64,000 bases of DNA, from UHGV virus genome UHGV-0057547; one strand, given 5' to 3'. The notes under the pieces are model-generated. The model was not told the origin of the DNA and did no database searches. It was given only the letters and a program-made list of their open reading frames with translations. Both the position numbers and the translations under genes were made by a program. The DNA is from a virus. Below, piece after piece: positions 2,783 through 63,280 of the stretch (positions are counted from its first letter, which is position 1; the number at the start of each line of letters is the position of its first letter).

Positions 2783-2827
2783 AATATAAAATAAATAAAA
2801 TATAAGATAAAAAGGAGAATGAGACGA

Positions 2828-3267
2828 ATGTCAGAATTAAATATAACTGATGTAAGAGATATGGCTTACAGTCTATATAAAGGTAAAACTGCTAATTTCG
2901 ATGCAGAATCTGCAAATGAAGCTATAAAAAATATAATACTTAAAACAGCTGGATGTGAAGATGGTTGGGATATGTATAAATTCATGGATAACAAATACAA
3001 AGTATTTGCTATAATGAGAGAAATATTAACTCCAGTTGTAGCTGAAAATGTTTTAGCTAGATTTGAATCTTGGGTAGACATAGAAGATATAGCTTTAGGT
3101 GATACTAAAGACTTTGAAGTTATGAACCAAGAATTATTTGAAATAGGATATGTAGCTGATGGTACTTCTGAATTAAGAAGACAAAACTTAACTCATGGTA
3201 AAATTACTATGACTGGTTTCCAATTAGGTGCTAAATTATATACTGAATTTGATGACTTTAGAAGGGG
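2828..3267 (+). CDS. Major capsid protein, exon 1
   Basis: RBS AAAGGAG at 2811-2817 lies 10 nt before the ATG at 2828. The ORF-track stop at 3283 is inside the intron. The 3' exon continues the same protein. Confidence 0.55.
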
Positions 3268-4604
3268 TAACTTAGTTTACTAGACAGCCCCCTATGTTTG
3301 TAAAAAGCATAGCAAATCCTTTTAATTGCTGGAAACTCCTAAAGCTCAATTCACTACAACGTAAGGTTAAATCCTAAGCGTGAATGTTACGAAAGTAGAA
3401 AAAAGTAATTGAGATTACCCAAGGTTAAATCCTAAAGGTGAATGAATGGACAATCAGCAGGGAAGATTTTAATTAACACTTAATTTTTTATAAGTTTATG
3501 AGTATAATATAAATAAGTGGAGGTGATGAAAATGACAAGAAAGATTTGGAATGAAATTACAATAAAAGAATTTATAGAAAATGAAACAAATTATAAATTC
3601 ATATCAATGGTTAAATTAAATGGAATGAAATCAATAGTGCTAGTATGGTGCGGTAATACTAATCATAAACCTTATAAAGTTCGATTTGATGCATTTAAAG
3701 GTACTTCTAAAAAAGAAGGAACGAGATGTGAACAATGTAGAAGAGAAAAGGATACTATTTGGACTAAAGATGAAATTATAAAATATGTAGAATCTCAAGA
3801 TTATAAATTTATAAGATTTGTAAAATTTAATAAATATGCAAGTATAATAGAAATTCAATGTAATAAAGGACACGAATCATATGAAACATACTTTAGTAAT
3901 TTCTATAATAATAGAAGATGTTTTCAATGTCATATAATATGGTCTAAAAAAGATATTATTAATTTTATAGAATCTCAAAATTATAAATTTATAAGATTTA
4001 TAACATATGAAAAAAATAATAGTTTAATAGAGATAAAGTGTCCTAAAGGACATATGAATCAAGTTAGATTTAGAAAATTTAAAGAAGGAACTAGATGCAC
4101 AGAATGTAATAAGTCTAAAGGTGAGGAAAAAGTAAAAGATATATTAAAAGAAATGTGTATAGATTTTAAATCACAATACAAATTCAAAGATTGTAAATGT
4201 AAAAAAGAGTTGCCATTTGATTTTTACATACCTTCATTAAATATTGCAATAGAATATGATGGAATACAACATTTTGAAATATTACCACATTGGGGTGGTA
4301 TTGATAAACTTATAGAAACTAAAATACATGATGAAATAAAAACACAATATTGTAAAAGAAAAAGAATAAAACTTATTAGAATTCCTTATTGGGAATTTAA
4401 AAATATAGAAAACATACTTATAAAAGAATTAGTGTTAAATTAGAATAACCTTCAACGACTAGAGCATAAGCTCGTACACTCAAGTGGGTGGAAATGGAGG
4501 ATACCTAGAAATAGGTAGTGATATAGTCTTGTCTCATGTGAAAGCATGAGCAGTTCATAAGAGAACGGATTAGGAGTAACGACCCTAGTCGAAAATAAAC
4601 GCAG
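3268..4604 (+). mobile_element. Group I intron A2 with an endonuclease ORF in P6
   Basis: P AATTGCTGGAAA at 3326, Q AATCAGCAGGG at 3452, R CTTCAACGACTAGAGC at 4452, S GATATAGTCTTGTCTCATGTGAAAGCATGAGCAGTT at 4530. Confidence 0.7.
3517..4443 (+). CDS. Intron-encoded endonuclease with tandem zinc-ribbon modules and a Vsr/DUF559-like PD-(D/E)XK domain
   Basis: Three modules of the form Y[KT][FL]I..........C..GH......F..G..C..C are followed by LPFDFYIPSLNIAIEYDGIQH...IKLIRIPYWEF. The ORF has its own promoter and RBS GTGGAGGTG. Confidence 0.7.
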   Translation: MEVMKMTRKIWNEITIKEFIENETNYKFISMVKLNGMKSIVLVWCGNTNHKPYKVRFDAFKGTSKKEGTRCEQCRREKDTIWTKDEIIKYVESQDYKFIRFVKFNKYASIIEIQCNKGHESYETYFSNFYNNRRCFQCHIIWSKKDIINFIESQNYKFIRFITYEKNNSLIEIKCPKGHMNQVRFRKFKEGTRCTECNKSKGEEKVKDILKEMCIDFKSQYKFKDCKCKKELPFDFYIPSLNIAIEYDGIQHFEILPHWGGIDKLIETKIHDEIKTQYCKRKRIKLIRIPYWEFKNIENILIKELVLN

Positions 4605-5169
4605 AACTGATTTTGCTGAATGGATAAGCAGATTAGGAAAATCATTTGAAGTTAAAATAGGTGAATATATAGTTAGAGGTATAGAAGATGCTTACTCTAG
4701 TTTAGGTGCTAAATTCGGTGTGACTGGTGCATACCAAGATGAAAAAATGGTTGAATTAATAGAAAGAGTTGAAGCTAAAACTGGACAAAAAGCTACTATA
4801 TACGGAACTAAAACTGCTTTAGCTAAATTAAGAACTGGTGCAGATGGTGCATTCCAAGCATACTTATCAGATAGCGACAAAGAAAACATAAGCAAAACTG
4901 GTAGAGTTGGAGATTACTACGGAACTCCTGTTGTTGAAATACCTCAATCAGTTAACAGAAAAGATGAATTTATGTTAAGTAATAAAATGCTTTATGTAAT
5001 ACCTAACGGAACTAAAATAATAAAATTATTATTTGAAGGCGATGTAGATGTTATAGAAGTATCTGACCCAGCAGTAAGAAAAGATATGCAATTTGAATAT
5101 ATGTTCATGAGAAGAATACAATTAGGTGTTTGTAAAGCTTCTGTTTATGGAATATACAAAATGAACTAA
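4605..5169 (+). CDS. Major capsid protein, exon 2
   Basis: The frame is open from 4561 and the ORF-track GTG start at 4720 is internal. Sequence ...TDFAEWISRLGKSF...VYGIYKMN. Confidence 0.55.
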
Positions 5170-8783: not shown

Positions 8784-10127
8784 TAATTTGCTCCCTATGT
8801 AAGTAAATTGCATAGCAAATCCTTTTAATTGCTGGAAACTCCTAAAGCCTTGCAAACCACAACGCAACTTGAAAAAGTAAACGTGATGGTGACGAAAGTA
8901 GAAAAAATTGTAAGGATTACCCAAGGTTAAATCCTAAAGGTGAATGAATGGACAATCAGCAGGTAAGATTTATATTTATTTTACTTTACTTTTAATAATT
9001 AATTTCGTATAATTTAAGTAAATGGAGGTGGTAGATATAAAATGGACAGAAGATAGAATTAAAGAATATGTTGAAAATCAAGGATATACTTATATAAAAA
9101 GAATTGAAGGAAAAGCAAGTATGTCGATTATAGAAGTTTGGTGTGGAAATCTTAATCATAAATCTTATAGGGTTATGTTTAAAAATTTTAAAGGTAATAA
9201 AGCAAAAAAACCAACAAGATGCCCATATTGTAGTAAAAATAAAAAATTAACCATTGAAGAAGTAAGAGTATTTGTTGAAAAATATGATTTTAGTTTATTA
9301 TCTGTAGAATATATTAATAATAGAACTCCATTAACACTACAATGTAAAAATGGACATATATTTTCAATAAGATTAGATAATTTTAAACAAAGTTTAAAAT
9401 GTCCAATGTGTTATAGACATTATGGTGCTTACACCGAAGATGAAGTTAAGCAATACCTTGAAAGTTTTGGTTATGAATTACTGAATAAATATATAGATAT
9501 ACATAAAAAAATAATAATTAAATGCCCTAAAGGTCATATTTATAAAACTTCATTTAATAGTTTTAAAAATAATGGAACTAGATGTTCTATTTGTAGAAAA
9601 TCAAAAGGTGAAGAAAAAATATCTAAAACATTAAAAGAATTAAAAATAAAATTCATAAGTCAATTTGTATTCGATGATTGTCAATATAAAACATATCTTC
9701 CATTTGATTTTTATTTACCTGAATATAATATATTAATTGAATACGATGGGATTCAACACTATGAACCTGTAGACTTTGGTGGTAAAGGAAATGAATGGGC
9801 AAATAAACAACTCGAATTAACAAAAATAAAAGACAATATAAAAACACAATATTGTGAAAATAATAATATAAAACTTATAAGAATATCTTATTGGGAATTT
9901 GATAGCATAGAAAATATATTAAGTAAAGAGTTAAAAGTAAGAAAATAAATATGAATAAACTTCAACGACTATTCCGTAAGGAAGTAAAGCCACAAGCTAT
10001 TGGTGGAAGAAATGGAGGATACCTAGAAATAGGTAGTGATATAGTCTGTTCTCATGTGAAAGCATGAGCAGTTTATATTGAATGAGTATAAACGATGTAT
10101 GTGTAGCGAACATATGTGAACACAAAG
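8784..10127 (+). mobile_element. Group I intron A3 with an endonuclease ORF
   Basis: P at 8826, Q at 8956 and R at 9963. S GATATAGTCTGTTCTCATGTGAAAGCATGAGCAGTT near 10043. The 3' end is GTGTAGCGAAC...CACAAAG. Confidence 0.65.
9022..9948 (+). CDS. Intron-encoded zinc-ribbon / Vsr-DUF559-like endonuclease (paralog)
   Basis: LPFDFYLPEYNILIEYDGIQHYE...IKLIRISYWEF, preceded by repeated C..C / GH..C modules. Confidence 0.7.
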   Translation: MEVVDIKWTEDRIKEYVENQGYTYIKRIEGKASMSIIEVWCGNLNHKSYRVMFKNFKGNKAKKPTRCPYCSKNKKLTIEEVRVFVEKYDFSLLSVEYINNRTPLTLQCKNGHIFSIRLDNFKQSLKCPMCYRHYGAYTEDEVKQYLESFGYELLNKYIDIHKKIIIKCPKGHIYKTSFNSFKNNGTRCSICRKSKGEEKISKTLKELKIKFISQFVFDDCQYKTYLPFDFYLPEYNILIEYDGIQHYEPVDFGGKGNEWANKQLELTKIKDNIKTQYCENNNIKLIRISYWEFDSIENILSKELKVRK

Positions 10128-10180: not shown

Positions 10181-10557
10181 AACTAGTACAGCGTATGTAA
10201 AGAAATTTACATAGGACACAACCTTAAAACCAGTAACTCCTAAAGCTCAACAACTACAACAAAGGATAGAATCAGAAACCTTTGTGAATGTGAGGAAACT
10301 CTGAAACAATAGTTGAGATGATATATGGCGAGAGCCTAAGTATTGTAACAATGGATGTTTGGTCGCCAAACTTAGAAATAAGAAGGTCAAACGACTATGA
10401 TTTGAAAGAATCATAAAGCCTCAAGCGAATGGAGGAAGAAATGGGTTGCCCCTAACAGATAATGCTGAGGGTGAAGAAATAGTCTAGTCACTCTAGGAAA
10501 CTAGGTGCTTAGAATTGACTAAGGTTTATAAGTTGCGATTATAAATAAATATTAACG
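10181..10557 (+). mobile_element. Group I intron A4 (divergent, no ORF)
   Basis: 5' region GTATGTAAAGAAATTTACATAGGACACAAC, R GGTCAAACGACTATGA at 10383, S GAAGAAATAGTCTAGTC. The 3' motif AAGGTTTATAAGTTGCGATTATAAATAAA matches the 3' end of intron A7. Confidence 0.5.
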
Positions 10558-15000: not shown

Positions 15001-17166
15001 AGAGAATCTTTTGATAACATTAAAATACCTAATTTAAATAAACAACTAGAAGCCGTTAAAGATTTAATGTCACTTAAAAATATGGACACTAGTGGTATAG
15101 ATACTTTAATAGAAAGAACTAAAAAATTATCAAGTTTAAGCGTAGATAAAATAGGTCAAGAGTTTAAGGAAATACAAAATGCACTTGGTAAAGAAATTAA
15201 TTTACGTTTAGGTTCTAGTGGTATCAAAGATATAGAATCTGCATTAAAAGTTATATTACAATATAGAAATGAATTAAAAAATAAAATAGCAGTTGAAACA
15301 GATTCGTCAAAAGTAAAAGACCTTAATAACCAATTAGAAAAAACTGAGAATATAATAGAAAAGCTTAAAGGTCAAACTAGTGGTGGACTTGGTGCAAGTT
15401 TAATTAGCGATGCTAATAATAATAACTTAAAACAATTAGAAGATACTGCTAATGGATTAGAGAAAACATTCTCTAATTTAGAAAATGAAGTAAATAAATT
15501 AAACAGCGAAGCATTGAATAAGGTTGACATAAGTCAATTAAGGGAAATGAATGAAGTTGTTAATGATGTAAAGAAAAATTTAGCATCTATTGGAGAAGGA
15601 AATGTTAATGTTGATTCAATAAATAAAACAGCACAAGATATAGAAAAATTAAAAAGACTAATAGAAAACACTAAAAAGACAATTAGTGATATGAAATTAG
15701 AAGTTTCATTTAATATTAAATCAAATGAAGCAGAACAATATTTAGCAGGTTTTGAATCAGCTTTATTAAGATTAGGTAAATCAACTAGTGGAATAAATGA
15801 TTTAAAAAGTGAATTTGAAAGTATAAAAAATTCAGCTAACGGAAATTTAAGTAGTGCCATAAAAATGATTGATGACTTTATTAATAAATTAAAACAAATG
15901 GGTAGCAAACAAGGTCTAGGTAATATAAGTGGTACTATATCTCAATATAAACAATATGCTAAAGAATTACAACAAGCTATGAGTGGAGCATTGAAATCTA
16001 GTGGTTCTGATACAGCTAAAGGATTTGAACAACAAGCTGATAGAATAAAAAATGCTATGCAACGTTTAACTTCAAGTTTCAAAGAATCACAAAGAGAATC
16101 GGCTAATGCTTTTAACAGTAGTTCATTTAGTGGTTTTTCTTCTAAATATGAAGCTGAAATAAATAAAGTTGAAAAAAGTATAAACAGATTTAAATCATCA
16201 ATGCAAAATTTAGATAAAGCTGTAAACTTCAAAAGTTTCCAAAGTGATGTAGGTAGAGGTTTATCTGAACAATTTGACCAAATAATGGCGAAAGCCGAAC
16301 AATTAAGAGATAAACTAAAGAGTGCATTATCTTCAGGTACATTTGATATAAGTGAAATAAATAGAATAAAAGATGAATTAAAACAAGTTGAACAAGAAGC
16401 AGATTCATTAAAACAAAAATCTATTGTATTGAAATGTGCCGAAAGTATATCTGAATTAGAAAAGCTTAGTAGTAAACTAAGAGATATAGGTGGAGATACA
16501 TCACAAATAGACAGATTAAGAGATGAATTTGTTTCACTTGGTTCAGGTATAAAAGAGGGTACTGCTGGAATAGATGATGCAATTTCTAAACTGAAATCTT
16601 TATCTTCGGAAGCACAAAGAACTTTTAGTTCTTTTGAATCATCTACTGGTAAAATAGGTTCTTTTGGTTCTAAAATACAAGGTTTCTTTGGTTCTATTAA
16701 GGATTCATTTAGGAATTTTACTATTGGTGAATTAATGGCTGATGGTATAAATCAAGCTGTTTATCAAATAAAAGATACTATATCAGGTTTAGATGAAGCA
16801 ATGTCCGAATTTAAAAGGGTTGCTCCTGATAACTTTAGTTTAAACACATCTAACTTACAAAGTGTTGCTAATGAAGCAAGAGAAATAGGTATTAGTGTTG
16901 GGCAATCAGTAGAAGATGTTATCACTGGAATGAGTACTGCATTACAAGCTGGTGCAGGCGACATTAAAACAGCTTCTGAAATAGCTAAAAGTTCTGCTAT
17001 ATTCCAAAATGTTACAGATATGGATGCAAAAAGTGCCTCAAAAGCTATTTCTTCAATGGTTAACCAATATTATGATATGGATTCAGCATTAAATCAAGTT
17101 GACCACGGTGTAGGTAAATCTGTAAAAGGATACAATAACTTAACTGAAGCGATGGATTTGGTAATT
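12034..17166 (+). CDS. Tape measure protein (TMP), exon 1. The end is uncertain within 17166-17190.
   Basis: GTG start with RBS AAAGAGTGGTGG. Long coiled-coil repeats. TMP core motifs ...GISVGQSVEDVITGMSTALQAGAGDIKTASEIAKSSAIFQ... The stop at 17196 is followed by an HE cassette. Confidence 0.6.
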
Positions 17167-18205
17167 GATTTGCCGTTTATATTAGAAATAATATAAATTA
17201 TTAGAGGGCAAAATCGGTGAAGACTAAATATTTTAATTTATTTACTTTTAATAAAAAATATGGTATAATAATATAAAATAGGAGGGGATATAATGAGAAG
17301 ATTGAGTTATGAATATGTAAAAGAGTATATAGAAAATTTTGGTTATAAATTATTATCAAAAGAATATAAAAACAATAAAACTGAATTAGAAATACAATGT
17401 AATGATTGTGGGAATATATTCCATATGAGATTTAACAATTTTAAAGATGGTAAACATAGATGTGAATGTAAGAGCAAACCATTAGTTTTGACATATGAAT
17501 ATGTTAAAAATTATATTGAATCATGTGGATATAAATTATTATCAAAAGAATATAAAAATAATGCAACCTATTTATTGGTTTGGTGTGGAAATCCTAATCA
17601 CAAACCTTATAAAGTTAAATTTAATAATTTTAAAGATTGTAATAGTAGATGTCCTGAATGTAATACAACTTCAAAAGGTGAAGAAAAAATAAAAGAAATT
17701 CTAATAAAATATAATATAAAATTTAATCAACAATATTTATTTAATGATTGTAGAAATACAAGACCACTTCCATTTGATTTTTATTTACCACAGTATAATA
17801 TTACAATAGAATATGATGGGAGACAACATTATAAATTAGATTGTTTTAATATGAATTTATTAGATTTAATGAATTTGAAATATAATGATAATAAAAAAAC
17901 ACAATATTGCAATAATAATAATATAAAACTTATAAGAATACCATATTGGGATTTTAATAATATAGAAAAAATACTTAAAAAAGAATTAAAAGTAAATTGA
18001 ATAAAGTACAAGTTAATACCGAGATAACTTATTAGATTACGAAAAGGCTAATAAGTATTGTAGAGCATAGAGGATGAATAAATATAACTCCTCCAAGAGT
18101 GTCCTCCATCCTAACGTAAAGACGAGGATGAAAATATATGCCATACTGAATTGGAATAGACCAATTGATGAAAATGAGGGAAACCTCCAGAGCATAAGAT
18201 AAAAA
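17167..18205 (+). mobile_element. Type-B intron-like insertion B1 with a Vsr/DUF559-like endonuclease ORF
   Basis: 5' block TTAGAGGGCAAAATCGGTGAAGACTAA. After the ORF comes AATACCGAG...CCTCC...TAACGTAAAGACGAGG...GAAAATATATGC...AGATAAAAAG. This core is shared with B2 at 19883-20151. Confidence 0.5.
17293..18000 (+). CDS. Intron-encoded zinc-ribbon / Vsr-DUF559-like endonuclease (paralog, 2 modules)
   Basis: RPLPFDFYLPQYNITIEYDGRQHY...IKLIRIPYWDF. Promoter and RBS GGAGGGG lie upstream. Confidence 0.65.
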   Translation: MRRLSYEYVKEYIENFGYKLLSKEYKNNKTELEIQCNDCGNIFHMRFNNFKDGKHRCECKSKPLVLTYEYVKNYIESCGYKLLSKEYKNNATYLLVWCGNPNHKPYKVKFNNFKDCNSRCPECNTTSKGEEKIKEILIKYNIKFNQQYLFNDCRNTRPLPFDFYLPQYNITIEYDGRQHYKLDCFNMNLLDLMNLKYNDNKKTQYCNNNNIKLIRIPYWDFNNIEKILKKELKVN

Positions 18206-18238
18206 GCTTATGGATAATAACAATAGAAATTACGCTGG
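18206..18238 (+). CDS. TMP 33-nt mini-exon (LMDNNNRNYAG)
   Basis: Exactly 11 codons lie between the B1 3' G (AGATAAAAAG|) and the A5 5' splice site GCTGGT|. The putative P1 is CUGGU with AGCCAG, including a U-G pair. Confidence 0.4.
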
Positions 18239-18620
18239 TTAGAATTAGCCAGGCTATATGGAGACATATAGTACAAATCTCTTTTGAATTGCTGGAAAGG
18301 ACTTAGAGCCTATTGAACTACAACGTAGATGGAAACATCAAACGTGAATGTTAAAAAATCAATAGGATTGTTCAATCAGCAGGTAAAATTCTAAGTGATA
18401 ATTTATCATATGAATAAACTTCAACGACTATCCCTTGGATTTGCTAATTTAGTAAATCAATAGGAGTACGGCTCAAGCGATTGGAGTGGGTGAGAATCCC
18501 TTAAATGGAAGTGGAAGAGGACTTATAAAAGTTCAAGATATAGTCTACTCTCGTAGGAAATCTACGAGCAGTCCTTTTTTTGGACGGTATGTATATAGCG
18601 AATACATATGAATATTAAGG
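18239..18620 (+). mobile_element. Group I intron A5, no ORF
   Basis: P2 hairpin CTATATGGAGACATATAG, P AATTGCTGGAAAGG at 18287, Q AATCAGCAGGTAAAATTCTAAG at 18375, R at 18421, S AAGATATAGTCTACTC at 18541. The 3' end is ...ATGAATATTAAGG. Confidence 0.7.
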
Positions 18621-19004
18621 AATAACTTCGCAATTTCATCTGATGGTGTAACAGAAGCATTACAACGTGGTGGTTCTGTATTATCTAACTATGGAGTAGA
18701 TTTAAAAGATTCCATTGCAATGATAACTGGAGCAAATGAATCTTTACAAGACCCTGCTCGTATAGGTAATGGTTTAAAATCTATAGCAATTAACCTTTCA
18801 GGTATTAAAACAAATGCACAAACAGGTGCTCTTGAATTAAATAAAACAGCAAAAGCATTACAAGAAACTGCTAAAATAGATATATTTACTGATAAATCTA
18901 AAACACAAGTTAAAGATATTGTTAGTATACTAGATGAAGTAAAAGATAAATGGGCTTCTTTGACTGATGTTGAACAAAAAGGATTATCAGAAGCCATAGC
19001 AGGT
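18621..19004 (+). CDS. TMP exon 3
   Basis: In-frame NNFAISSDGVTEALQRGGSVLSNYGVDLKDSIAMITGANESLQDPARIGNGLKSIAINLSG..., which is the typical TMP core region. Confidence 0.55.
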
Positions 19005-20151
19005 AGTATGTAAGATTTTGTCTTATTAATTTATTGAATAGACATTATACAAAAATAGTAGTATAATATAAGTAATAAATTAATAAGGAGGGAACTTTCA
19101 TGGGGAAAAGTTCAAAAGATAAATATGAATTAGGTAAAGAAATGTTTTTACAAGGGAAAACAACAATGAATATAGCAAAAGAATTAAATATATCAAGAAG
19201 TAGATTTTCAAGATATTTAAGGGAGTGTGGAATAGATAGTCAACAATATCATAAATTTCCTATAGATGAAAATGTTTTTAATGTAATAGATACAGAAGAA
19301 AAAGCGTACTGGTTAGGATTTTGGTTTGCAGATGGATATGTAAGTTCAAATAGAAATACAGTAGGTATTGATTTAAAACCGAGCGATTTAAATCATCTAA
19401 ATAAATTAAAAACATTTTTAAAATGGAAAGGCGATATAAAAGTAGAAGAAACTAGATGTAGATTAAATTTTAGAAATGATAAAATTAAGAATGATTTAAT
19501 AAAATATGGATGTGTTCCAAATAAATCATTAACGTTAAAATTTCCAAAATCTATAAAAGAAAGTTTTATTCCAGCTTTTATAAGAGGTTATTTTGATGGC
19601 GATGGCTGTTTATGTTACACTGAAAAGACATTAGAAGTAAGCGTAATAAGCACTTATGAATTTCTTGAATCTATATGCGACATAATTAACATTGATAAAA
19701 AAAGAATATATGATTTAAATAAAAATAAAAAAACAAGTCGTATAGTTCTTAGTTCAAAAAAAGATATTAAAAACTTTCTTGAATATATTTATAAAGATGC
19801 TAATATTTACTTAGATAGAAAATATGAAAAATATAAAAATCTTAAAACTGCCGTCTTTGATAGAAATATTAAAGATAATTAGAGGGATGTATCGGTGAAG
19901 CCTAAGTCGAAAGATATGGTAATACCGAGGGTATCTTAACAGAGAATATCCGTAACGCATAGGGAGTGAGCGATATTGTTAGCAATAACCTCCCCACGAG
20001 CTTCCTCCACGATTATATATATAAGAATAATCACTTATAGATGTTGCTACTATAAGTTCTAACGTTAAACGAGAGTGAAAATATATGCTGGACTTATGAG
20101 AAATCATAAGAAGTGGATGTGTGAATTGACACACTATTAATAGATAAAAAG
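19005..20151 (+). mobile_element. Type-B intron-like insertion B2 with a LAGLIDADG ORF
   Basis: The ORF begins right after the 5' junction. The post-ORF core matches B1 (AGAGGGATGTATCGGTGAAG...AATACCGAG...TAACGTTAAACGAGAG...AGATAAAAAG). Confidence 0.5.
19100..19882 (+). CDS. LAGLIDADG homing endonuclease, double-motif
   Basis: The two LAGLIDADG-type motifs are YWLGFWFADGY and IRGYFDGDGC. RBS AAGGAGGG. Confidence 0.75.
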   Translation: MGKSSKDKYELGKEMFLQGKTTMNIAKELNISRSRFSRYLRECGIDSQQYHKFPIDENVFNVIDTEEKAYWLGFWFADGYVSSNRNTVGIDLKPSDLNHLNKLKTFLKWKGDIKVEETRCRLNFRNDKIKNDLIKYGCVPNKSLTLKFPKSIKESFIPAFIRGYFDGDGCLCYTEKTLEVSVISTYEFLESICDIINIDKKRIYDLNKNKKTSRIVLSSKKDIKNFLEYIYKDANIYLDRKYEKYKNLKTAVFDRNIKDN

Positions 20152-20286
20152 CTCCACGATAACAAATCGAAAACTCAAGCCGGTGTATTCCAAGCATTAA
20201 TGACAGGTTGGGAAAGAGTTCGTCAATATCAAAAAGAATACAATGAAGGTTGGATGATAGGTTCAGCTCAAAGAGAGAAACAACAT
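20152..20286 (+). CDS. TMP exon 4
   Basis: Open frame LHDNKSKTQAGVFQALMTGWERVRQYQKEYNEGWMIGSAQREKQH. It ends at a codon boundary on U, before intron sequence TCTCCGTATGTACAG. Confidence 0.4.
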
Positions 20287-20658
20287 TCTCCGTATGTACA
20301 GAAATGTGCATAGGACATAGATTTAATTGCAGGTAATCCCTAAAGCTCTACACCACAATATATCTGAAAAGAATATATGAAGGTACGAAAGTAGAAAAAA
20401 CGTAGAGATTCTCATATGGTTAAATCCTAAGTGAGAGTAACAATGGGTGTTCATGCAGGTAAGATTCTAAGTGATAATTTATCATATGAATAAACTTCAA
20501 CGACTAGAATGCAAATTCGTAGGGTGTAAGCGATTGACACTCGAAAAGGTCTACCCTTAATATTAAGGTGAAGAAATAGTCTACTCTTATAGGAAACTAT
20601 AAGCAGTTTTCATATAAAGAAAACGGATTAAGTGTAGCGAACTTAATTGAATAAATGG
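20287..20658 (+). mobile_element. Group I intron A6, no ORF
   Basis: P variant AATTGCAGGTAATCCC at 20327, Q GTTCATGCAGGTAAGATTCTAAG at 20460, R at 20497, S GAAGAAATAGTCTACTC. The 3' end is GTGTAGCGAACTTAATTGAATAAATGG. Confidence 0.65.
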
Positions 20659-23600
20659 AATGAAATCTATATGGATTCCATTGCTGGTAAATTTAATACT
20701 TTAAAAGAAAATCTTAAAGGAATATTAACTAGCAATGTTACAACAGATATGTTTAAAGGACTATTAGATGGTGCTAATAAAGTAGTAGAAGCAGTAGGAA
20801 AAATAAGTTCAAGCTTAGGTAAAATTGGTTCTGCTGGTGCATTAGTAGGTATTTCATCTTTTGTAAAAACTTTATCAAATTTAGATAAAGCTAAAACAAT
20901 AGGTGGTGGTTTTACAGGATTTGATAACCTATTAGAAGTAATACAAGGTACTGCTGTTACTTCTTCCGGTGAAATAAAAACACTAGGCGATAGTTTTAAA
21001 GAATTAGGTGTTAAGACAACTCTATCTAAAGTAGCATTAGGATTATTTAAAGGTGTATTAATGGGTATTGCATTTACTGCTGTTGTTAAAGGAATAGATG
21101 CTATGGTAAAAGCATGGGACAATTATATTCATGCAACAGAAAATGCAGTAAAGGCTTCTAAAGAAAGACAAGATGGATATAGAGACGAAGCACAAACATT
21201 AAGTACTAAAAAATCAAGTCTACAAGAAATAGCTAAAGAATATGATAATTTAAATAATAAATCTGATAAAACTGCTGAAGATTTAACTAGATTAAATGAA
21301 TTAAAACAACAAATAGGACAAATAGCTCCTGACCTTGTTAAAGGATATGATTCAGCAGGTAATCCAATATTAAATCTTACTACTAGTATGCAAGGTTATA
21401 TAGCTGAATTAGATAAAGCAATCGCTAAACAACGAGAACTATATAATTATGAAACTAAAAAACAAGCACGAGAATATATGAAGAAAAATGACACTAAAAA
21501 TGGTGCTCAAGACCCTGAAAGAAATTCTTATGAAACTGAATTAAATCATCTTCAAAATGCAAATGATAGAAAAACTAGAGAAGAAAAAAGATATACTGGT
21601 AGTTTAAAAAATATTATTAAAGATAGAAATAAATATAGAGAAGACCAAGAAAAAAGTATTAATGATAGATTAGAAAGAATTAGAAATGCACAAACAGAAG
21701 TTAATAATAGAGATACTACAATTGAAGATAATTATGTTAACGAATTTAATAAGAAAACTAAATTAGCCGAAAAAGAACAAAATAAATTTGCTACTTTTAT
21801 GAAAGGACTAAATTGGGGTACTTATGGTGAAGCAGAAGCCAATAGAATGGCTAAAGGTTTACAAACATTATCTGAAAAAACTGCGTTTACAACTCAAGAA
21901 ATGACAAAAGGATTATCAGGTAGTATGTCAAAAAAAGTTTCAGCAGAAATTGCTAAAGTAAATGCAGAATTCAAAAAGACAAATGCCATAAACGAATGGG
22001 GAAAAAATTTAAGAAATATAGCTAATGAAACAGGAAAATTTGATTTTTCAAATTGGAGTAATTACTTATCAGAAGTTCAAACTCGTTTTGAACAAGGAGT
22101 AAGTACTAATGAACAATATACACATTCATTAGGAATCATGGCTGATGCTATGGAAGATTTAACTGGTATAGATTCAGATGTATTCTTACCAGCTTTAAAA
22201 GGTGGAGCAGATTTAGAAGAAGCCTTTAAATCAGCAACTGAAGGTTTAAATGGTTTTATGAGTGCTTATGGTTCTTCTACTGCAAAATTACAACAAGGCG
22301 ATTCATTTGCTAAAAAGTTAGAGTCTCAATTTAAAGAACTTGAAAATTTTGAAACTGAATTTGAAGGTCAATATGAGATGGAAGGTAAAGTTAGGGTAGA
22401 CTGGTTAATAGAACAAAAAGATAATAAAGATTTACCTAAACAATTAAGAACTATAATAGATGCGGTAACAAAAGACAATGAAGTAACAGAAGTAGAAGAA
22501 AAATTAGTATTAGCCTGTGAAACAGAAATAAAAGATAAAGGTAAGTTGGAACAAAGTACAATAGATGCAATAAATCAAGTAATGGACGGAACATGGGATG
22601 TAAATAAAACTATTGAAATAGGTGGTATGGAATTTACATCATCTGAAATAAAAGAATTAATGTCATTAGCTGACCAATTAGGTATATCTTTAGAAGGCTT
22701 AAATATTGGTGATACAGGATTAGATGGAGAAGCTCAAAAAGCTCAAGCATTAAAAGATGCAATAGATTCAATCTCAGATAGAGAAATAAAAGTAGCAATA
22801 GAGGCTGAAGGATTTGAAAATTCCGACCAAGTTAACAATATAATGTCAGTTGTTGACCAAATAGATGGAAGACAAGCTAAAGTTGATTTTATAGCAGATG
22901 CTTCTCAATACTTTATGGAAAATGATAGTGTTGAATCAGCAATAGAAGCTATGCCTGATGAAATAAAACTTAAATATAATATTGGGGTTGAAGGTGATGA
23001 AAGACTAGAAGGAATACAAAGTAGACTTGAAAAATTACCAAAAGATATTAGAACTATGGTATATGCTCAAACATATGGTGTAGAAAATGTTGAAATGCTA
23101 GAAAAAATGGTAGATACTTTTGGTGGAAAAACTGCAACAGCAATATTACAAATAGAAGGTATACAAGATTCTCTTAAAAATGCTACTACATTTGAGGAAC
23201 AATTAAAAATAATTGGAGACTATGTATGTAAACCTGGAGTAGAAATAGAAGGTAAAGATAAAATACTTGACACAATTGATAGCATATTAAAGAAATTAAA
23301 AGAAACAGATGGTAAAGAAGGTAAAGCTAAAGTAGAAGTAGAAGGAGATACTTCAGGAGCTGAGAAAGTAGAGAAAAAAGTAGAAGAAGTAGATGGTAAG
23401 GAAGGTAAAGCTAAGGCAAAAGTTGATGGAGATACTTCAGGAGCAGATAAAGTAGAGAAAAAAGTTGATGAAGTGGACGGCAAGGAAGGGACTGCTAAAG
23501 TAAAAGTAGATGCTGATACTTCTGAAGCTGAAAAAGCTAAAAAAGAAGTAGACAATTTAGCTGTTAATAAAAATGGTACAGTTACTTTATTAGTAAATGG

Positions 23601-27270: not shown

Positions 27271-27498
27271 AAATTTAGCCTGGTTGTCGAGTAATCGGCT
27301 TCAAAAATAATAGATTTAATTGCAGGTAATTCCTAAAGCCTTACACCACAAGCACAGAGAAATCATGTGTTGAAGGTACGAAAGTAGAAAAAACGTAAGG
27401 ATGGATATAAGGTTAAATCCTAAGTATCCAAACATATTTATATATGTTAAAATGGATGTTCATGCAGGTAAGATTCTAAATTAAATTATTTTAAATAT

Positions 27499-27541
27499 TT
27501 GACTTTTAATAAGATAAATTGTATAATATAAGTAAAGAGAG
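27499..27541 (+). promoter_or_regulatory. Sigma70-like promoter and RBS driving the intron-encoded HNH ORF
   Basis: TTGACT-17 nt-TATAAT with the TGTATAAT extended form, then AGAGAGGTGG as RBS. Confidence 0.5.
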
Positions 27542-28444
27542 GTGGAATATATGGGTCAAAAATTGAATAGAAAAAAAATAGAAAAATATATAAATCAATA
27601 TAATTATGAAGTTTTATATTGTAAACATGATAAAAATAAATATAAATGGAAACTCATTTTAATGTGCCCTAATTTTCATATTTTCAAAATGGATTTTGAT
27701 AAATTTCAAAATAATAGAAGATGCCCTTGTTGTAATGGTTCTAAGTATAATGAAGATTTTGTTAGAGAATATATGTTAAATAATGGAGATATACTTTTAT
27801 CTCATTATCATAATGGAAATGAAAAATTAAAAGTAATGTGTAAATATGGTCATATTTTTTATCCAATATTTAATAATTACTATAATAAAAATTCAAGATG
27901 TCCATATTGTAATGGGAATATAACTATGGAGCATAAAAGTTTTATTAATAGATTAAATACAATTAACCCTAACATAGAAATATTGGGTGAATATAAAAAT
28001 AGTCATACTAAAATTAAATGTAAGTGTAAAATAGATGGGCATGAATGGGAGGCAAAGCCTACTAATCTATTAGGAAGTAAAAATGCAAAACCAACTGGAT
28101 GTCCAAAGTGTTATAGACGAACTTATCGAGGTGAAACACATCCTTTATTTGACCATAGTAAAACAAAAGAAGATAGAGAAGATGATAGAAGTTATTTTGA
28201 ATATAATGAATGGAGAACTAAATGTTTTGAGAGAGATAAATATACTTGTCAAGTTACCGGACAACAAGGTGGAAGATTAGTAGTACATCATTTATATTCT
28301 TATAATAAATATTATTGTTTAAGAACGACATTGGAAAATGGTATAACAATATCAGAAGAAATACATAAAAAATTCCATTCTATTTATGGAAATGGAAATA
28401 ATACATTCGAACAATGGGAAGAATTTATTAAAAGTTTAAAATAA
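27542..28444 (+). CDS. Intron-encoded HNH endonuclease with N-terminal zinc-ribbon modules
   Basis: The zinc-ribbon modules resemble those of the Vsr-like family. The C-terminus carries CQVTGQQGGRLVVHHLYSYNKYYCLRTTLENGITISEEIHKKFH. Confidence 0.65.
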   Translation: MEYMGQKLNRKKIEKYINQYNYEVLYCKHDKNKYKWKLILMCPNFHIFKMDFDKFQNNRRCPCCNGSKYNEDFVREYMLNNGDILLSHYHNGNEKLKVMCKYGHIFYPIFNNYYNKNSRCPYCNGNITMEHKSFINRLNTINPNIEILGEYKNSHTKIKCKCKIDGHEWEAKPTNLLGSKNAKPTGCPKCYRRTYRGETHPLFDHSKTKEDREDDRSYFEYNEWRTKCFERDKYTCQVTGQQGGRLVVHHLYSYNKYYCLRTTLENGITISEEIHKKFHSIYGNGNNTFEQWEEFIKSLK

Positions 28445-28642
28445 TTTAACATGAATAAACTTCAACGACTATCCCTTGGATTTACTAATTTAGTAAATCA
28501 ATAGGAGTACGGCTCAAGTGATTGGAGTGGGTGAAATCCCCTTAAATGGAAAAGGTCTACTCCTACAATTGTAGGATGAAGAAATAGTCTTGACACGTTT
28601 TGAAAGAAAGTGCTTAGAATTAACTAAGGTTTATAAAATGCG

Positions 28643-29006
28643 ATTATAAATAAAATTTTTCGTAAAGAAGCTTATCAAAGATGGAGAGACGATGTTGACT
28701 ATAAAGATGATTATAACAAACAATTAAAAACTGTTGAAGATTTACAAAAGAAAATAGAAATAGCGAAACGTGATGATAGTTTAACTGGACAAAAACGTTT
28801 AGCAGATTTGATGAAAGAATTAAAAGAAGAACAAGAAAATCTTGAAGATATGGTTCAAGACAAAATTAACAGTGACGTGAATAATATGTTTGATGACCAA
28901 ATAGACAAAATAGAAGAAAATTCTGATGAAGAAGTTAAGAATTTGGAAAAAACATGGTCAGAAAGCAAAATAGCTGAAATGGTTAAACAAGCACTTGATA
29001 CTGGAG
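28643..29006 (+). CDS. TMP exon 6
   Basis: IINKIFRKEAYQRWRDDVDYKDD...KQALDTG. The frame is continuous with exon 5 when the intron ends at the G of ATGCG. Confidence 0.45.
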
Positions 29007-29217
29007 TAAATTAGCTCCTTTTACTAAGTAATTAGTATTAAAACTCATTGAATTGCTGGAACTTCCTAAAGCTAACTAAACTACAATATGGCTAGAAATG
29101 GCGAATATGAATGTGGCGAAAGCAGAAAAAATTAGTTAGATATTCATATGGTTAAATCCTAAGTGAATATAAATGGATAATCAGCAGGTAAGTGCCTAAA
29201 TTTATTTTATAAAATAA

Positions 29218-29268
29218 TTGACTTTTAATAAGATAAAACGTATAATATAAGTAAAGAAAGGGGTTGAG
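29218..29268 (+). promoter_or_regulatory. Sigma70-like promoter and RBS driving an intron-encoded endonuclease
   Basis: TTGACTTTTAATAAGATAAAACGTATAATATAAGTAAAGAAAGGGG is nearly identical to the cassette at 27499. Confidence 0.5.
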
Positions 29269-30360
29269 ATGATGAAAAAACATGATTATAAATTTATTAA
29301 AGAATATGTTGAAAGTTTTGGATATAAATTATTATCAACAGAATATAAAAATGCTAATACTAAATTAAAAATAGAATGTCAAGAAGGACATATGTTTGAA
29401 AGAACATTTAGTAAGTTTAAACAAACTCAAAATTGTCCATATTGCACTAATACTAGAAAATGGAATATTTTAGAAATAAAAGAGTATTTAAAAAACATAG
29501 GTTATACATTATTAAGTACAGAGTATAAAAATAATCAAACCAAATTAGATATGATTTGTTCAGAGGGACATAAAATACAAATGACTTTAGGAAATATCCA
29601 ACAAGGTAAAAGATGTCATATATGTTCAAGAAAAACAGCTTCAGAAAAAAGAAAACATGATTATGAATTCGTTAAGCAATATATTGAAAATGAAGGTTAT
29701 AAATTATTATCCAAAACATATATAAATCAAGATGAAAAATTAAAAATAAGATGTTCGAAAGGTCATATATTTTTAATGAGTTTTTGTAAATTTAAACAAG
29801 GTCAAAGATGTCCTCAATGTTGTAAAAATAAAAAAATGTCTCATAAAGAATTTTTAGAAAAATTCTATAATCAAAATTACAATACTGAAAATATAGAAAT
29901 ATTGAGTGAATATATAAATGCTAAGACGAAAATAAAATGTAAATGTCTAAAAGACGGTTGTATTTGGTATGTTATACCTAATAGTTTACTAAACGGAACT
30001 GGTTGTCCTCAATGTAACGAATCTAAAGGAGAAAAAAGAGTTGCTAAATATTTAGATAGTAGAAATATAGAATATGAAAGACAATATAAATTTAATGATT
30101 GTAAAAGTAACAAAGAGTTACCTTTTGATTTTTATATACATAGTTTAAATATAGCTATAGAATATGATGGTGGACAACATTATATGATAGTAAACCATTT
30201 TGGAGGACTTAATGGATTTATAACTACTAAAATACATGACACTATAAAAACACAATATTGCAAAAATAACAATATTCGTTTAATAAGAATACCATATTGG
30301 GATTTTGATAATATAGAAAATATACTAAGTCAATTATTAAATATAAATATGAATAAATAA
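29269..30360 (+). CDS. Intron-encoded zinc-ribbon / Vsr-DUF559-like endonuclease (paralog, 4 modules)
   Basis: ELPFDFYIHSLNIAIEYDGGQHY...IRLIRIPYWDF. Confidence 0.7.
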   Translation: MMKKHDYKFIKEYVESFGYKLLSTEYKNANTKLKIECQEGHMFERTFSKFKQTQNCPYCTNTRKWNILEIKEYLKNIGYTLLSTEYKNNQTKLDMICSEGHKIQMTLGNIQQGKRCHICSRKTASEKRKHDYEFVKQYIENEGYKLLSKTYINQDEKLKIRCSKGHIFLMSFCKFKQGQRCPQCCKNKKMSHKEFLEKFYNQNYNTENIEILSEYINAKTKIKCKCLKDGCIWYVIPNSLLNGTGCPQCNESKGEKRVAKYLDSRNIEYERQYKFNDCKSNKELPFDFYIHSLNIAIEYDGGQHYMIVNHFGGLNGFITTKIHDTIKTQYCKNNNIRLIRIPYWDFDNIENILSQLLNINMNK

Positions 30361-30508
30361 GGCAAAACTTCAACGACTATATATACTAGTAGTCTAGTTA
30401 GTGGTGAGCATCCTTATGGGATGATGATATAGTCTACTCTCATGTGAAAGCATGAGCAGTTCATAAGAGAACGGTATAAGGTTTAACGAACTTTATATGA
30501 ATATTAAG

Positions 30509-30987: not shown

Positions 30988-31695
30988 ATGGCAAAGCCTT
31001 ATTATTTAAAATTTAAAATATGTAGTACTTGTAAAAATATATTACATATAAGTAAATTTAATAAAAATAAAAAATGTAAATATGGTGTGTCATCTCGATG
31101 CAGAGAGTGTGATAGAAAATATTATAAAAAATACTATGGGAGTAATAAAGAAAAAATAATAGAAACAAATAAAGAATATTATAAAAACAATAAAGAAAAA
31201 ATTTTAGAATACCATAAAGAATATTATGAAGACAATAAAGAAAAAATCTATAAAAAAACAAGACAATATGCAATTGATAATAAAGAGAAAACTAATGAAT
31301 ATAAAAGAAAATATAAAAAAAATAATCCTAATAAAACATTTAATAACAGTATAAAAAGAAGATTAAATGAAAAAACACAAGGTAATGGAATTACTAAAGA
31401 ACAATGGTATGAAATGATGGGATTTTTTGATTGGAAATGTGCTTATAGTGGAGAATACATAGGTGGAGATAATGATAATAGAACTATAGACCATATTGTA
31501 CCTTTAAACAATGATGGAGAACATGAAATTTGGAATTGTGTACCTATGTATCAACCTTACAACAGTGGTAAACGTGATAGAAATATGTTAGAATGGTATT
31601 TAAAACAAGAATATTTCTCAATAGAAAAATTAACTAAAATATATGAATGGAGAATATATGCATATAATAAATGGGGTGATATAAATGGCAAGTAG
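30988..31695 (+). CDS. Free-standing HNH endonuclease with an N-terminal NKEKI/EYY repeat domain
   Basis: RTIDHIVPLNNDGEHEIWNCVPM forms the HNH core. The K/Y-rich heptad-like repeats are NKEKIIETNKEYYKNNKEKILEYHKEYYEDNKEKIYKK. Confidence 0.6.
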   Translation: MAKPYYLKFKICSTCKNILHISKFNKNKKCKYGVSSRCRECDRKYYKKYYGSNKEKIIETNKEYYKNNKEKILEYHKEYYEDNKEKIYKKTRQYAIDNKEKTNEYKRKYKKNNPNKTFNNSIKRRLNEKTQGNGITKEQWYEMMGFFDWKCAYSGEYIGGDNDNRTIDHIVPLNNDGEHEIWNCVPMYQPYNSGKRDRNMLEWYLKQEYFSIEKLTKIYEWRIYAYNKWGDINGK

Positions 31696-55138: not shown

Positions 55139-55463
55139 TAATTTTAGTCCCTATGTAAAGAAATTTATATAGCAAACCCTTTGAATTGCTGGAAAACCCT
55201 TAGAGCCTTAATACTACAATAGAGAGGAAACTACTCTATGAAAGTTTGAAAAGTTTAAGGATTGGGTAATCAGCAGGTAAGATTCTAAATTACTATAAGT
55301 AATATGAATAAACTTCAACGACTAAGTATCCTAGTAGTCTAGGTAGTGGAGGGCATCCCTTCATGGGATGATGATATAGTCTACTCTCATGTGAAAGCAT
55401 GAGCAGTTTTCTTTGAGTAAGAAAACGGATAGAATAATAGCGATATTCTATTGAATATAAAGG
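55139..55463 (+). mobile_element. Group I intron A9, no ORF
   Basis: P GAATTGCTGGAAAACCC at 55185, Q AATCAGCAGGTAAGATTCTAAATT at 55268, R at 55313, S GATGATATAGTCTACTCTCATGTGAAAGCATGAGCAGTT. The 3' end is ...GAATATAAAGG. Confidence 0.65.
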
Positions 55464-55586: not shown

Positions 55587-56747
55587 GTAACAAATTAAGC
55601 TCCCTATGTAAGTAAATTGCATAGCAAACCCTTTGAATTGCTTGTAATCCCTAAAGTCAACTAAACTACAACGTGGCTAGAAATGGCGAACGTGAATGTG
55701 GCGAAAGCAGAAAAAATTAGTTGAATGGTATATGGTTAAACCCTAAGTACTTTTGTAATGGGTGTCTAGCAGGTAAGATTCTAAATTAAATTATAAAATT
55801 AAGTTTATTTTTTATAAAAATATAAGTATAATATAAATAGGGGGTGAATATTATGGGTAAACGTAAAATGAGTGAAGAACATAAAAGGAAACGATTAGAT
55901 ATAGTTAAAAAGAAATGTGATGAATTAGGCTATACATTATTGACAAAAGAGTATATTAACAATAAAACAAAATTAGAAATTGTATGTGATAAAGGACATT
56001 TATGGACACCAACTTTTGATAATTTCATTATGAAAGATAGAAGATGTAGAAAATGTGCTGATAAACAAAATGGTATAAATCAAAGGTTATCTTGGGAAGA
56101 AGTGCTAAATAGAGTAGAACCTTATGGATATAAAATGATTAGCAATAAAGAAGATTATATCAATCAAGATTCTAAACTCAAAGCCTTATGTCCAAATGGA
56201 CATATTTATAAATTTAGTATAAATAATTTTCAACGAGGTAAAAGATGTTCTCAATGTAAAATGTCCGGTGGCGAACAGGAAATATCAAGAATATTGAATA
56301 AATATTCTATAGAATATAAATTCAATTATAAATTCAATACGAATAATATAATAAAAACAAAGCCTTTTGATTTTAAAATATTAAATAAAAACATATGTAT
56401 TGAATATGATGGACAACAACATTATCATTTTCAATTTGATAATAATCTTTTAGATTTAATGAATAGAAAACATATAGATACTATAAAAACAAAATATTGC
56501 GAAGACAATAATATAAAACTTATTAGAATTCCTTATTGGGAATTTGATAATATAGAAAATATACTTATAAAAGAACTTAATTTAAAATAATTTAATATGA
56601 ATAAACTTCAACGACTATATATACTAGTAGTCTAGTTAGTGGAGGGCATCCCTTCATGGGATGATGATATAGTCTACTCTCATATGAAAGTATGAGCAGT
56701 TCATAAGAGAACGGTATAAAGTTTAACGAACTTTATATGAATATTAG
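55587..56747 (+). mobile_element. Group I intron A10 with an endonuclease ORF
   Basis: The 5' sequence is GTAACAAATTAAGCTCCCTATGTAAGTAAATTGCATAGC. P GAATTGCTTG at 55648, Q GTCTAGCAGGTAAGATTCTAAATT at 55768, R at 56603. The 3' end is ...ATGAATATTAG. Confidence 0.7.
55844..56590 (+). CDS. Intron-encoded zinc-ribbon / Vsr-DUF559-like endonuclease (paralog)
   Basis: KPFDFKILNKNICIEYDGQQHYH...IKLIRIPYWEF. Confidence 0.7.
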   Translation: MNIMGKRKMSEEHKRKRLDIVKKKCDELGYTLLTKEYINNKTKLEIVCDKGHLWTPTFDNFIMKDRRCRKCADKQNGINQRLSWEEVLNRVEPYGYKMISNKEDYINQDSKLKALCPNGHIYKFSINNFQRGKRCSQCKMSGGEQEISRILNKYSIEYKFNYKFNTNNIIKTKPFDFKILNKNICIEYDGQQHYHFQFDNNLLDLMNRKHIDTIKTKYCEDNNIKLIRIPYWEFDNIENILIKELNLK

Positions 56748-61282: not shown

Positions 61283-61354
61283 TAGCTCAAATAAAACCTT
61301 TTCTGATATACGGCGAAACTCCTGGAGAGGACAACGCCTTCCAACTATTATTTA

Positions 61355-61421: not shown

Positions 61422-62279
61422 GTGTGTAAGAAAGAGAATAGTTTTGCACAATGGTTTATAAATGAATTTGGATTAGAAAAATTTAACACTGTTATAAATC
61501 ATGAAAAAAATAAATCATTAGGCATAGATATTTGGAACGTATCAAAGAGAAGTGGTTGTAAAATTTGGTTTAAATGTGAAAATAAAGATTATCACGAATA
61601 TCAACTTACAGCCGATAAATATTTTATTGGTAATAGATGTAAATATTGTGGTAGAACAAAATATGTTCATCCAAGAGATTCGTTAGGTCAATATATAATT
61701 GATAACTTTGGAGAAGATTTTTTAAATAGAGTATGGTCAACAAAAAATAAAAAATCGCCTTTTGAATATACTATTGGAACTGAGAAGAAAGTTTGGTTTA
61801 ATTGTATCAATGGTATTCATGAACCAAAATTAAGACAAATAAAAAATTCTGTTGCTAACGATTTTAAATGCCCATTTTGTTTAAAAAATTGCCATATTTC
61901 AAAATTAGAAAAGAAAGTGTTTTTATATTTAAAAAGCATTTTTAAAAACATAAATAGAGAAAGCAATTGTAATTTAATACCCAAAAATCCTAAAACTAAT
62001 AAAATAATGCCTTATGATAATGAGATAGTGGATATAAAATTAATAATAGAAGTACATGGAAAACAGCATTATGAATTATCAGGAGATACAAGTGCATGGT
62101 TACATGGATTATCACCAAAAGAGTATCTTCATAAAAGAAAATTGTATGATAGGTATAAAAGAATGTACGCAAAGTCCAATGGTTATTATTATTTAGAAAT
62201 ACCTTATTGGGCTGATGATTTAGAAGAAACTTGGAAAATTATGATTGATGATAAAATAAAAGAAATATTAAGTCAATAA
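61422..62279 (+). CDS. Divergent zinc-ribbon / PD-(D/E)XK-like endonuclease inside C1
   Basis: C..C modules and IIEVHGKQHYE...LEIPYW. Promoter TTGACA-17-TGTATAAT and RBS GGAGGTG lie upstream. Confidence 0.5.
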   Translation: MCKKENSFAQWFINEFGLEKFNTVINHEKNKSLGIDIWNVSKRSGCKIWFKCENKDYHEYQLTADKYFIGNRCKYCGRTKYVHPRDSLGQYIIDNFGEDFLNRVWSTKNKKSPFEYTIGTEKKVWFNCINGIHEPKLRQIKNSVANDFKCPFCLKNCHISKLEKKVFLYLKSIFKNINRESNCNLIPKNPKTNKIMPYDNEIVDIKLIIEVHGKQHYELSGDTSAWLHGLSPKEYLHKRKLYDRYKRMYAKSNGYYYLEIPYWADDLEETWKIMIDDKIKEILSQ

Positions 62280-63201: not shown

Positions 63202-63280
63202 TTTTAACAAGAAGAACCTCTCTCGCTAGACATATTATGTCTAGTCAGTAGCCTTATATGGTGAAAGTAACAGAATGTAG

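Follow-up and report, generated by a model that had tools for sequence, protein, structure and literature searches.

In the 64,000-nt stretch of the viral genome UHGV-0057547 analysed here (the window), six open reading frames (ORFs), which we call HEG1 to HEG6, are very probably intact homing endonuclease genes (HEGs) of a family that joins an array of CapR-like zinc fingers to an EDxHD/Vsr-like nuclease domain, each with its own promoter-like and ribosome-binding site (RBS) cassette and each seated in a peripheral loop of a group I intron. The carrier is an uncultured low-GC phage of ~198 kb. A preliminary description of this DNA, made from its letters alone, had picked out the same six ORFs, and all of them are present on the + strand (Table 1). 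Its proposal that they are intron-encoded is borne out for five of them and probably holds for the remaining one, on the evidence of intron-flank alignments, ORF-less alleles, and fold stability.

Six paralogs with a common architecture

HEG1 is 38-45% identical to four of its paralogs in a full-length alignment and 24% identical to HEG6 (61422-62279). The C-terminal core that had been proposed for the family is recovered as the alignment consensus LPFDFYIPxxNIxIEYDGxQHYE...KTQYCKNNNIKLIRIPYWEFDNIENIL, and so is the module signature CxxGH...F..G.RCxxC. When window ORFs of at least 80 aa were searched with a profile of the C-terminal domain, exactly these six matched, at E values of 4e-27 to 5e-53. 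A tblastn search of the window with HEG4 found no extra fragments of the family; its sole other match was the zinc-module part of the ORF at 27542-28444, which has an HNH-type C terminus. The range of two to four module copies given earlier holds, with counts for HEG1 to HEG6 of 3, 3, 2, 4, 2, and 2; the modules are 59-77 aa long and the C-terminal domain 113-135 aa. The start codon of HEG1 is most likely ATG 3532, because a near-identical metagenomic protein is 303 aa long, and that of HEG5 is most likely ATG 55853. A recent within-genome duplication giving rise to the six copies was considered and rejected: HEG1 has nearer relatives elsewhere (58-77% identity) than among its paralogs in the window (24-45%).

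The nuclease domain

An AlphaFold2 model of HEG1, computed with 117 homologs as input, was confident (pLDDT 94.1), and its C-terminal domain adopts a Vsr-like catalytic fold, a divergent form of PD-(D/E)XK. Residues D196/E206/N208/H213/D222 of I-Bth0305I correspond to D51/F62/H64/H69/D97 of Vsr and to D235/E246/D248/H252/D272 of HEG1 (the Vsr and 3R3P sequences were taken from PDB search output and the residue roles from the I-Bth0305I paper). The 117 homologs show no variation at D235, E246, H252, D272, or K275, and more than 90% of them keep D248. All six paralogs keep the active-site residues, with the sole exception of HEG6, in which D248 is replaced by His, the residue found there in Vsr (H64). 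The nuclease domain is the best-conserved region of the protein in the six-ORF alignment. In the model, then, the fold and active site are those of a Vsr-like nuclease, and the chemistry would be expected to correspond.

Direct profile comparison by hhalign placed the domain on I-Bth0305I with 35% identity over 40 columns and the correct catalytic register, a structure (3r3p) that the PDB profile searches had missed; with Vsr, the register was the same at E 0.19. Alignment by eye to the 3r3p sequence gave this register too. I-Bth0305I, whose catalytic residues correspond, stands as the closest experimentally described relative, as had been suggested. The anticipated match to a Vsr/DUF559-type profile was obtained in part: it came through structure and the weak hhalign alignment to I-Bth0305I (E 0.002), and not through Pfam, where DUF559 (PF04480) stayed below threshold, scoring at best 16.9 bits (E 0.006, HEG5) against a gathering cutoff of 20.6 bits, with the other HEGs at 13-13.5 bits or unlisted. 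Matches of the nuclease domain to PvuRts1I-N in Pfam were likewise sub-threshold. None of the six HEGs has an HNH match in Pfam, the fold being Vsr-like instead, and the HNH label attached to PHROG 559, in RefSeq, and to Lactococcus phage homologs appears to be a misannotation.

Two cysteines of HEG1 that stand apart from the listed catalytic residues, 226 (in 'DCK') and 279 (in 'QYC'), at nt ~4192 and ~4351, are conserved in more than 90% of the 117 homologs and may form a disulfide or a metal site.

The zinc modules

Pfam CapR (PF21817) matched the modules with E values reaching 8e-15, including four stretches in HEG4, and DUF4379 (PF14311), a 'probable treble clef zinc finger', matched them with E values reaching 1e-11. 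DUF723 also occurs in homologs, for which precomputed annotations list PF21817/PF14311/PF05265. No Pfam match to NUMOD or helix-turn-helix (HTH) domains was found in the N-terminal region of the six HEGs. The AlphaFold2 model builds the module from one helix and three strands, and the predicted ligands are a C-x3-4-H pair on a hairpin turn (a knuckle) and a CxxC that opens a short helix. This predicted layout is that of a treble clef and not of the 'zinc ribbon' named in the preliminary description.

The further suggestion that the modules are DNA-binding arms of variable copy number is consistent with the Pfam CapR and DUF4379 matches and with the mosaic make-up of the modules. In HEG3, the first halves of modules 1 and 2 share 70% identity, and module 2 is similar in its second half to the first modules of HEG1 and HEG2. 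The final module of HEG4 and that of the neighboring HNH-type ORF at 27542-28444 are 53% identical. We read this last likeness as one DNA-binding array paired with two different nucleases. The neighboring ORF (hereafter the CapR-HNH ORF) has three CapR/DUF4379 modules and a sub-threshold HNH-type C terminus, and it, too, sits in a P6 loop, that of an intron from the same family, with the same promoter-like cassette in front.

Introns, cassettes, and host genes

At its gathering score, Rfam RF00028 recognized three ORF-less group I introns in the window, at 55130-55403, 56841-57104, and 57553-57887 (95.4, 98.4, and 53.4 bits), and weak group I matches were obtained for the 3' halves that follow HEG1 (31.4 bits) and HEG5 (30.2 bits). 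The flanks of HEG1, HEG2, HEG4, and HEG5 align on both sides to Rfam-confirmed introns, with the ORF replacing the P6 loop. Upstream of each P6-loop ORF (these four and the CapR-HNH ORF) lie P1-P5 and the 5' strand of P6, followed by a cassette consisting of a TTGACT-like -35 element, 17 nt, TATAAT, GGAGG, and the start codon; the stop codon of these ORFs adjoins P6' and the CTTCAACGACTA junction. The HEG3 intron has a group I-like core recognized by homology to the confirmed introns. The ORF-less ~270-nt form of the HEG6 element folds far better than shuffled sequences (z = -4.26), and we consider that element a likely intron because of its core-like motifs, its fold stability, and the CotH-like host gene that it splits.

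Matches to the promoter-like pattern number 10 in total against 2.96 expected, a count reached by none of 100 shuffles, and all seven of the + strand matches lie immediately upstream of HEG1 to HEG6 or the CapR-HNH ORF.

The host genes encode capsid-like, virion structural, tape-measure (twice), metallophosphatase-like, and CotH-like proteins. When the exons around HEG1 are joined, they align in one piece to uninterrupted genes of Clostridioides difficile phages, and with PHROG 4088 the match extends over 328 of 332 positions. At least five breaks occur in the tape-measure gene.

We sought splice junctions from the protein frames and the canonical rules (a U before the 5' splice site and a terminal intron G). 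Four introns cannot meet both group I rules in frame where the junction is set by intron-less alleles or by a catalytic motif (Table 1): taking the P1-closing U (GGGGU/GCCCC, GGAGU/GCUCC) as the last exon base gives an intron end that is not G, and ending the intron in G gives G or C as the last exon base. The sister introns at 55139-55463 and 57564-57936 satisfy both rules. Because the rules are jointly unsatisfiable in several introns, those boundaries are given within 1 nt.

Presence and absence among close relatives

IMG/VR contains contigs of 146-198 kb that are 92-99% identical to the window over long stretches (labeled L below), and a single metagenome, 3300045988, is the source of most of the close contigs whose element content differs. 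In two 197-kb relatives (L002/L003), the capsid gene is continuous, window position 3269 joining 4603, without intron 1; the intron-less junction in L002 reads ...GATTTCAGAAGAGGT followed directly by AGAACTGACTTTGCT.... At the HEG3 site, L009/L010 lack 17281-17988 but keep the intron and a promoter remnant. At the HEG4 site, L014/L015/L017 lack 29193-30364 and have a closed P6 hairpin there, and at the HEG5 site all five relatives (L019-L023) lack 55788-56593. The HEG6 site is ORF-less (~270 nt) in L025/L026, L027/L028 have HEG6 alone there, and a different insert is also seen among the relatives. The reverse occurs as well, with family members in relatives at sites unoccupied in the window. 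Presence is also polymorphic for the ORF-less introns 55139-55463, 57564-57936, and ~20278-20658 and for the CapR-HNH intron (~27271-28663). Elements are gained and lost rapidly, as their presence and absence among 92-99% identical contigs demonstrates; the direction of change is a matter of inference, as is homing driven by cleavage.

Two further observations concern these sites. Instead of the CapR-HNH ORF, L014, L016, and L018 have a member of the Vsr-like family immediately 5' of the intron at the HEG4 site. The HEG6 element (61283-63270) carries two endonuclease ORFs, HEG6 and 62449-63201, the latter matching PHROG 374 (labeled 'HNH endonuclease'). Since relatives have neither ORF, HEG6 only, or a different insert, the two ORFs are gained and lost independently of each other.

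Abundance of the family

The preliminary description had called the family much rarer than the LAGLIDADG, HNH, and GIY-YIG families, which is incorrect: 45,268 cluster representatives (50% identity) match at E<=1e-3. Relatives occur in 584 cultured-phage records, 225 of them Staphylococcus. The usual annotation of homologs is hypothetical protein or, mistakenly, HNH, and none of the six HEGs is covered by an NCBIfam model.

Relation to known endonucleases

A 2025 study of phage group II introns in NAR described HEGs with three to five ~60-aa CapR/DUF4379/DUF723-like domains followed by a ~100-aa C-terminal EDxHD/Vsr-like domain (PMC12350094). They reside in phage introns with several paralogs per genome, and their description is bioinformatic only (PMC12350094). 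The window genes have the same architecture, several CapR/DUF4379/DUF723-related modules and then a Vsr-like domain, and likewise combine intron residence with several paralogs per genome (six in the window). They differ in having two to four modules rather than three to five, and in their hosts, which are structural genes with group I introns, the ORF mostly in P6, whereas the published hosts are RNA polymerase genes. We conclude that the window genes are new members of this recently recognized, biochemically uncharacterized kind (PMC12350094). An ORF that splits the RNA polymerase beta gene of a PBS1-like phage (Takahashivirus) matched HEG1 by tblastn at E 5e-16, with 30.8% identity over 94% of HEG1; the homology to the AR9/PBS1 group rests on this PBS1-like ORF. 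In an Enterococcus phage, the terminase gene is split by two homologs of the family, and in both of these cultured phages the positions are intron-like.

I-Bth0305I, the prototype EDxHD homing endonuclease, is encoded in the recA group I intron of Bacillus phage 0305phi8-36 (PDB 3R3P); it acts as a homodimer, cutting beside the intron insertion site to give 2-nt 5' overhangs (PMC3239194). The window HEGs have its fold, active site, domain order, and intron residence in common, and the link is below database-wide significance in profile searches. They differ from it in several respects: its N terminus is NUMOD/HTH and theirs a zinc-module array; its N208 is Asp in the HEGs (His in HEG6); the H-to-D spacing is 20 residues in the HEGs and 9 in I-Bth0305I; and its ORF interrupts P5, whereas those of the HEGs are mostly in P6.

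On the N-terminal side, the nearest parallel is with the T5orf172 endonucleases of Barth et al., which have modular 'beads on a string' arms of CapR/DUF723/DUF4379 zinc fingers (PMC10055350). The tandem zinc-finger array, variable copy number, and repeat recombination are shared, the HEG modules being mosaic too. In contrast, the T5orf172 nuclease is GIY-YIG, which is unrelated to the Vsr fold, and those genes are mostly free-standing whereas the window HEGs are intron-borne. Escherichia coli Vsr (PDB 1CW0/1VSR) is a stand-alone repair enzyme that nicks T:G mismatches; it has Phe62 where the HEGs have the invariant Glu246, and the sequence similarity is marginal. Vsr further contains a structural zinc site, together with Trp residues intercalating at the mismatch (PMC3239194).

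The genome and its other intervening sequences

The window is AT-rich (G+C 26-33%), and nearly all of its sizeable ORFs are on the + strand, several with products of ~2,000 aa. A 198,912-bp metagenomic contig encodes a protein 97% identical to HEG1. No close relative emerged when the first 20 kb was compared with cultured phages by Megablast; the matches were only ~120-nt pieces, ~77-88% identical, from Staphylococcus phages and Bacillus phages (AR9/PBS1). The capsid-like protein is similar to its counterparts in phiCD211-type C. difficile phages, Brevibacillus phage Sundance, and Lactococcus 949-group phages.

Within its 64 kb, the window has ~15 intervening sequences in structural genes, a very high density, and most belong to one group I intron family (Table 1); many are present in some of the 92-99% identical contigs and absent from others. 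The ~120-nt pieces, at 658-789, 3322-3435, 18105-18228, and 18447-18572, lie within or overlap introns, and their counterparts are in Staphylococcus phages and in Bacillus phages AR9/PBS1, where one falls under an AR9 gene labeled DNA gyrase A / topoisomerase II. That these intron stretches are the only matches in an otherwise DNA-matchless 20 kb suggests horizontal spread of introns across distant phages.

ORFs 34-684 and 1036-2238, parted by an ORF-less intron of the same family, match PHROG 3313 at positions 18-177 and 211-466 of 480 and are probably one spliced gene. The gene at 53756-58548, whose C-terminal part is metallophosphatase-like, contains four introns (55139-55463, ~55589-56748, ~56841-57164, and 57564-57936), and three of its four junctions fall at the catalytic motifs GD, GNxD, and GHxH. 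Two further endonuclease ORFs lie within or next to the tape-measure gene: 19100-19882 is a LAGLIDADG_3 ORF with an N-terminal HTH, and 30988-31695 is HNH-like at sub-threshold score. The latter looks free-standing, and 30995-31684 is absent in four relatives and present in one.

Table 1. Coordinates of the HEGs, their cassettes, and intervening sequences in the window.
Feature	Position	Strand	Description
HEG1	3517..4443	+	three zinc modules and Vsr-like nuclease domain (~4099-4440); P6 loop of intron 1
HEG2	9022..9948	+	three zinc modules and nuclease domain; P6 loop of group I intron
HEG3	17293..18000	+	two zinc modules and nuclease domain; 5' of P3 in intron
HEG4	29269..30360	+	four zinc modules and nuclease domain; P6 loop, tape-measure gene
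HEG5	55844..56590	+	two zinc modules and nuclease domain; P6 loop, metallophosphatase-like gene
HEG6	61422..62279	+	divergent; two zinc modules and nuclease domain; intervening sequence in CotH-like gene
Promoter-like TTDAYW-N17-TATAAT, then GGAGG RBS	3480..3508	+	upstream of HEG1
Equivalent promoter-like/RBS sites	8985-9013, 17241-17269, 29218-29246, 55804-55832, 61355-61383		upstream of HEG2-HEG6
Equivalent promoter-like/RBS site	27499-27527		upstream of CapR-HNH ORF
Intron 1, group I	3269..4602	+	splits major-capsid-like gene, exons 2819-3268 and 4603-5169; boundaries within 1 nt
HEG2 intron, group I	~8785 to ~10100		3' end not fixed
HEG3 intron	~17190-18611		core ~18278-18600; between two tape-measure exons; same cassette as others
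HEG4 intron, group I	~29008 to ~30500		in tape-measure gene
HEG5 intron, group I	~55589-56748		in metallophosphatase-like gene
HEG6 intervening sequence	61283-63270		splits CotH-like gene; core-like motifs
Rule-breaking junctions	3266-3270/4600-4604; 20275-20280/20655-20661; 27268-27274/28660-28664; 55586-55589/56746-56749		
Intervening sequences, first half	~630-1035, 3269-4602, ~8785-10100, ~10190-10556, ~17190-18611, ~19015-20125, 20278-20658, ~27271-28663		
Intervening sequences, second half	~29008-30500, 55139-55463, ~55589-56748, ~56841-57164, 57564-57936, 61283-63270, 63729-end		

Discussion

If the six genes are homing endonucleases, their life cycle can be sketched from work on I-Bth0305I, Vsr, and CapR-type HEGs. 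The ORF would be transcribed from the intron-internal promoter-like site and translated, and its two to four treble-clef modules would lay the protein along the DNA that flanks the insertion site in an element-less related phage. The Vsr-fold domain would then cut near that site, probably as a dimer; the acidic cluster D235/E246/D248/D272 and H252 are in place in the predicted fold, and they could act with Mg2+, H252 serving as general base. Recombinational repair from the element-bearing genome would copy the intron, the ORF, or both. The introns are predicted to self-splice, leaving the structural genes functional, and the continuous homologs support the spliced ORF. The last step, rapid gain and loss of elements within the phage lineage, is what we see among the contigs.

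Several points weigh against this reading. The sequence-profile links of the nuclease domain to known nucleases are weak, DUF559 being sub-threshold, and PDB-chain profile searches with two full-length alignments and the C-terminal alignment returned chance matches only (Kti11, CcmH, and G-alpha). Rfam at permissive thresholds gave no match in 17100-20700, which holds HEG3 and the LAGLIDADG ORF, and none in 61200-64000 (HEG6) or in the ORF-less version of that element in L026. At the HEG2 site, neither an ORF-less nor an intron-less allele was found, and relatives have a divergent family member there. The ORF-only polymorphism could reflect deletion rather than gain, and the L009 allele at the HEG3 site, which keeps the promoter, looks like a deletion. 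Cleavage, target site, and dimerization are all extrapolated.

A tentative alternative, possible although we think it unlikely, is that the enzymes serve mainly as weapons of interference competition, cutting the genomes of co-infecting element-less phages and lowering the yield of competitors, with homing as a by-product. Their targets are essential structural genes, co-infection is plausible given that the contigs with differing element content mostly share a single metagenome, and the mechanism is the same as that of homing, so all of the structural evidence applies equally. This alternative and ordinary homing fit the same evidence, and they are not mutually exclusive.

It is quite improbable that some or all of the copies are inactive, whether as decaying relics or as domesticated DNA-binding regulators or maturases. 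CapR, which derives from the DNA-binding domain of a HEG, is a precedent for such co-option (PMC8096241, PMC10055350), HEG life cycles include degeneration, and the L009/L010 allele at the HEG3 site looks like the remnant of a deletion. However, the six ORFs are full length with every catalytic position intact or conservatively replaced, each retains its promoter-like/RBS cassette, and the nuclease domain is the part that has been conserved best. Ordinary DUF559/Vsr-type repair or restriction-like nucleases lying immobile between gene fragments are scarcely credible: the sub-threshold DUF559 and PvuRts1I-N matches and the metagenome labels of homologs ('very-short-patch-repair endonuclease' in one source, 'restriction enzyme' in another) point that way, but the Vsr match reaches only E 0.19 in hhalign, the ORFs stand in place of the P6 loop in genuine group I introns, and they are present or absent site by site among near-identical genomes. 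Intron-borne homing endonucleases remain our preferred interpretation. The preliminary description was, on this evidence, essentially right; its two errors were 'zinc ribbon' and 'rare'.

A more speculative proposal, which we hold to be rather unlikely, is that the tandem CapR-like modules form a combinatorial, roughly additive DNA-recognition code. Were this true, reshuffling of modules would let one nuclease family colonize many unrelated sites (at least 10 intron sites are occupied across the phage lineage), and the code would be decipherable and perhaps programmable. Because alleles with and without the element occur in near-identical contigs, the cognate targets of two-, three-, and four-module enzymes could be read from natural data.

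The family is among the most abundant homing-endonuclease architectures of phages, yet it lacks an NCBIfam model or a nuclease model that reaches the Pfam threshold, and it is commonly mislabeled 'HNH'. The window and its relatives supply six intact paralogs with differing module numbers together with matching empty sites, namely a capsid allele that lacks the intron and, at four further sites, introns that lack the ORF. This natural panel of filled and empty sites is a ready set of substrates for the first biochemical work on the family, and it is suited to asking whether target specificity is dictated by the module array and whether an endonuclease ORF can move without its intron.

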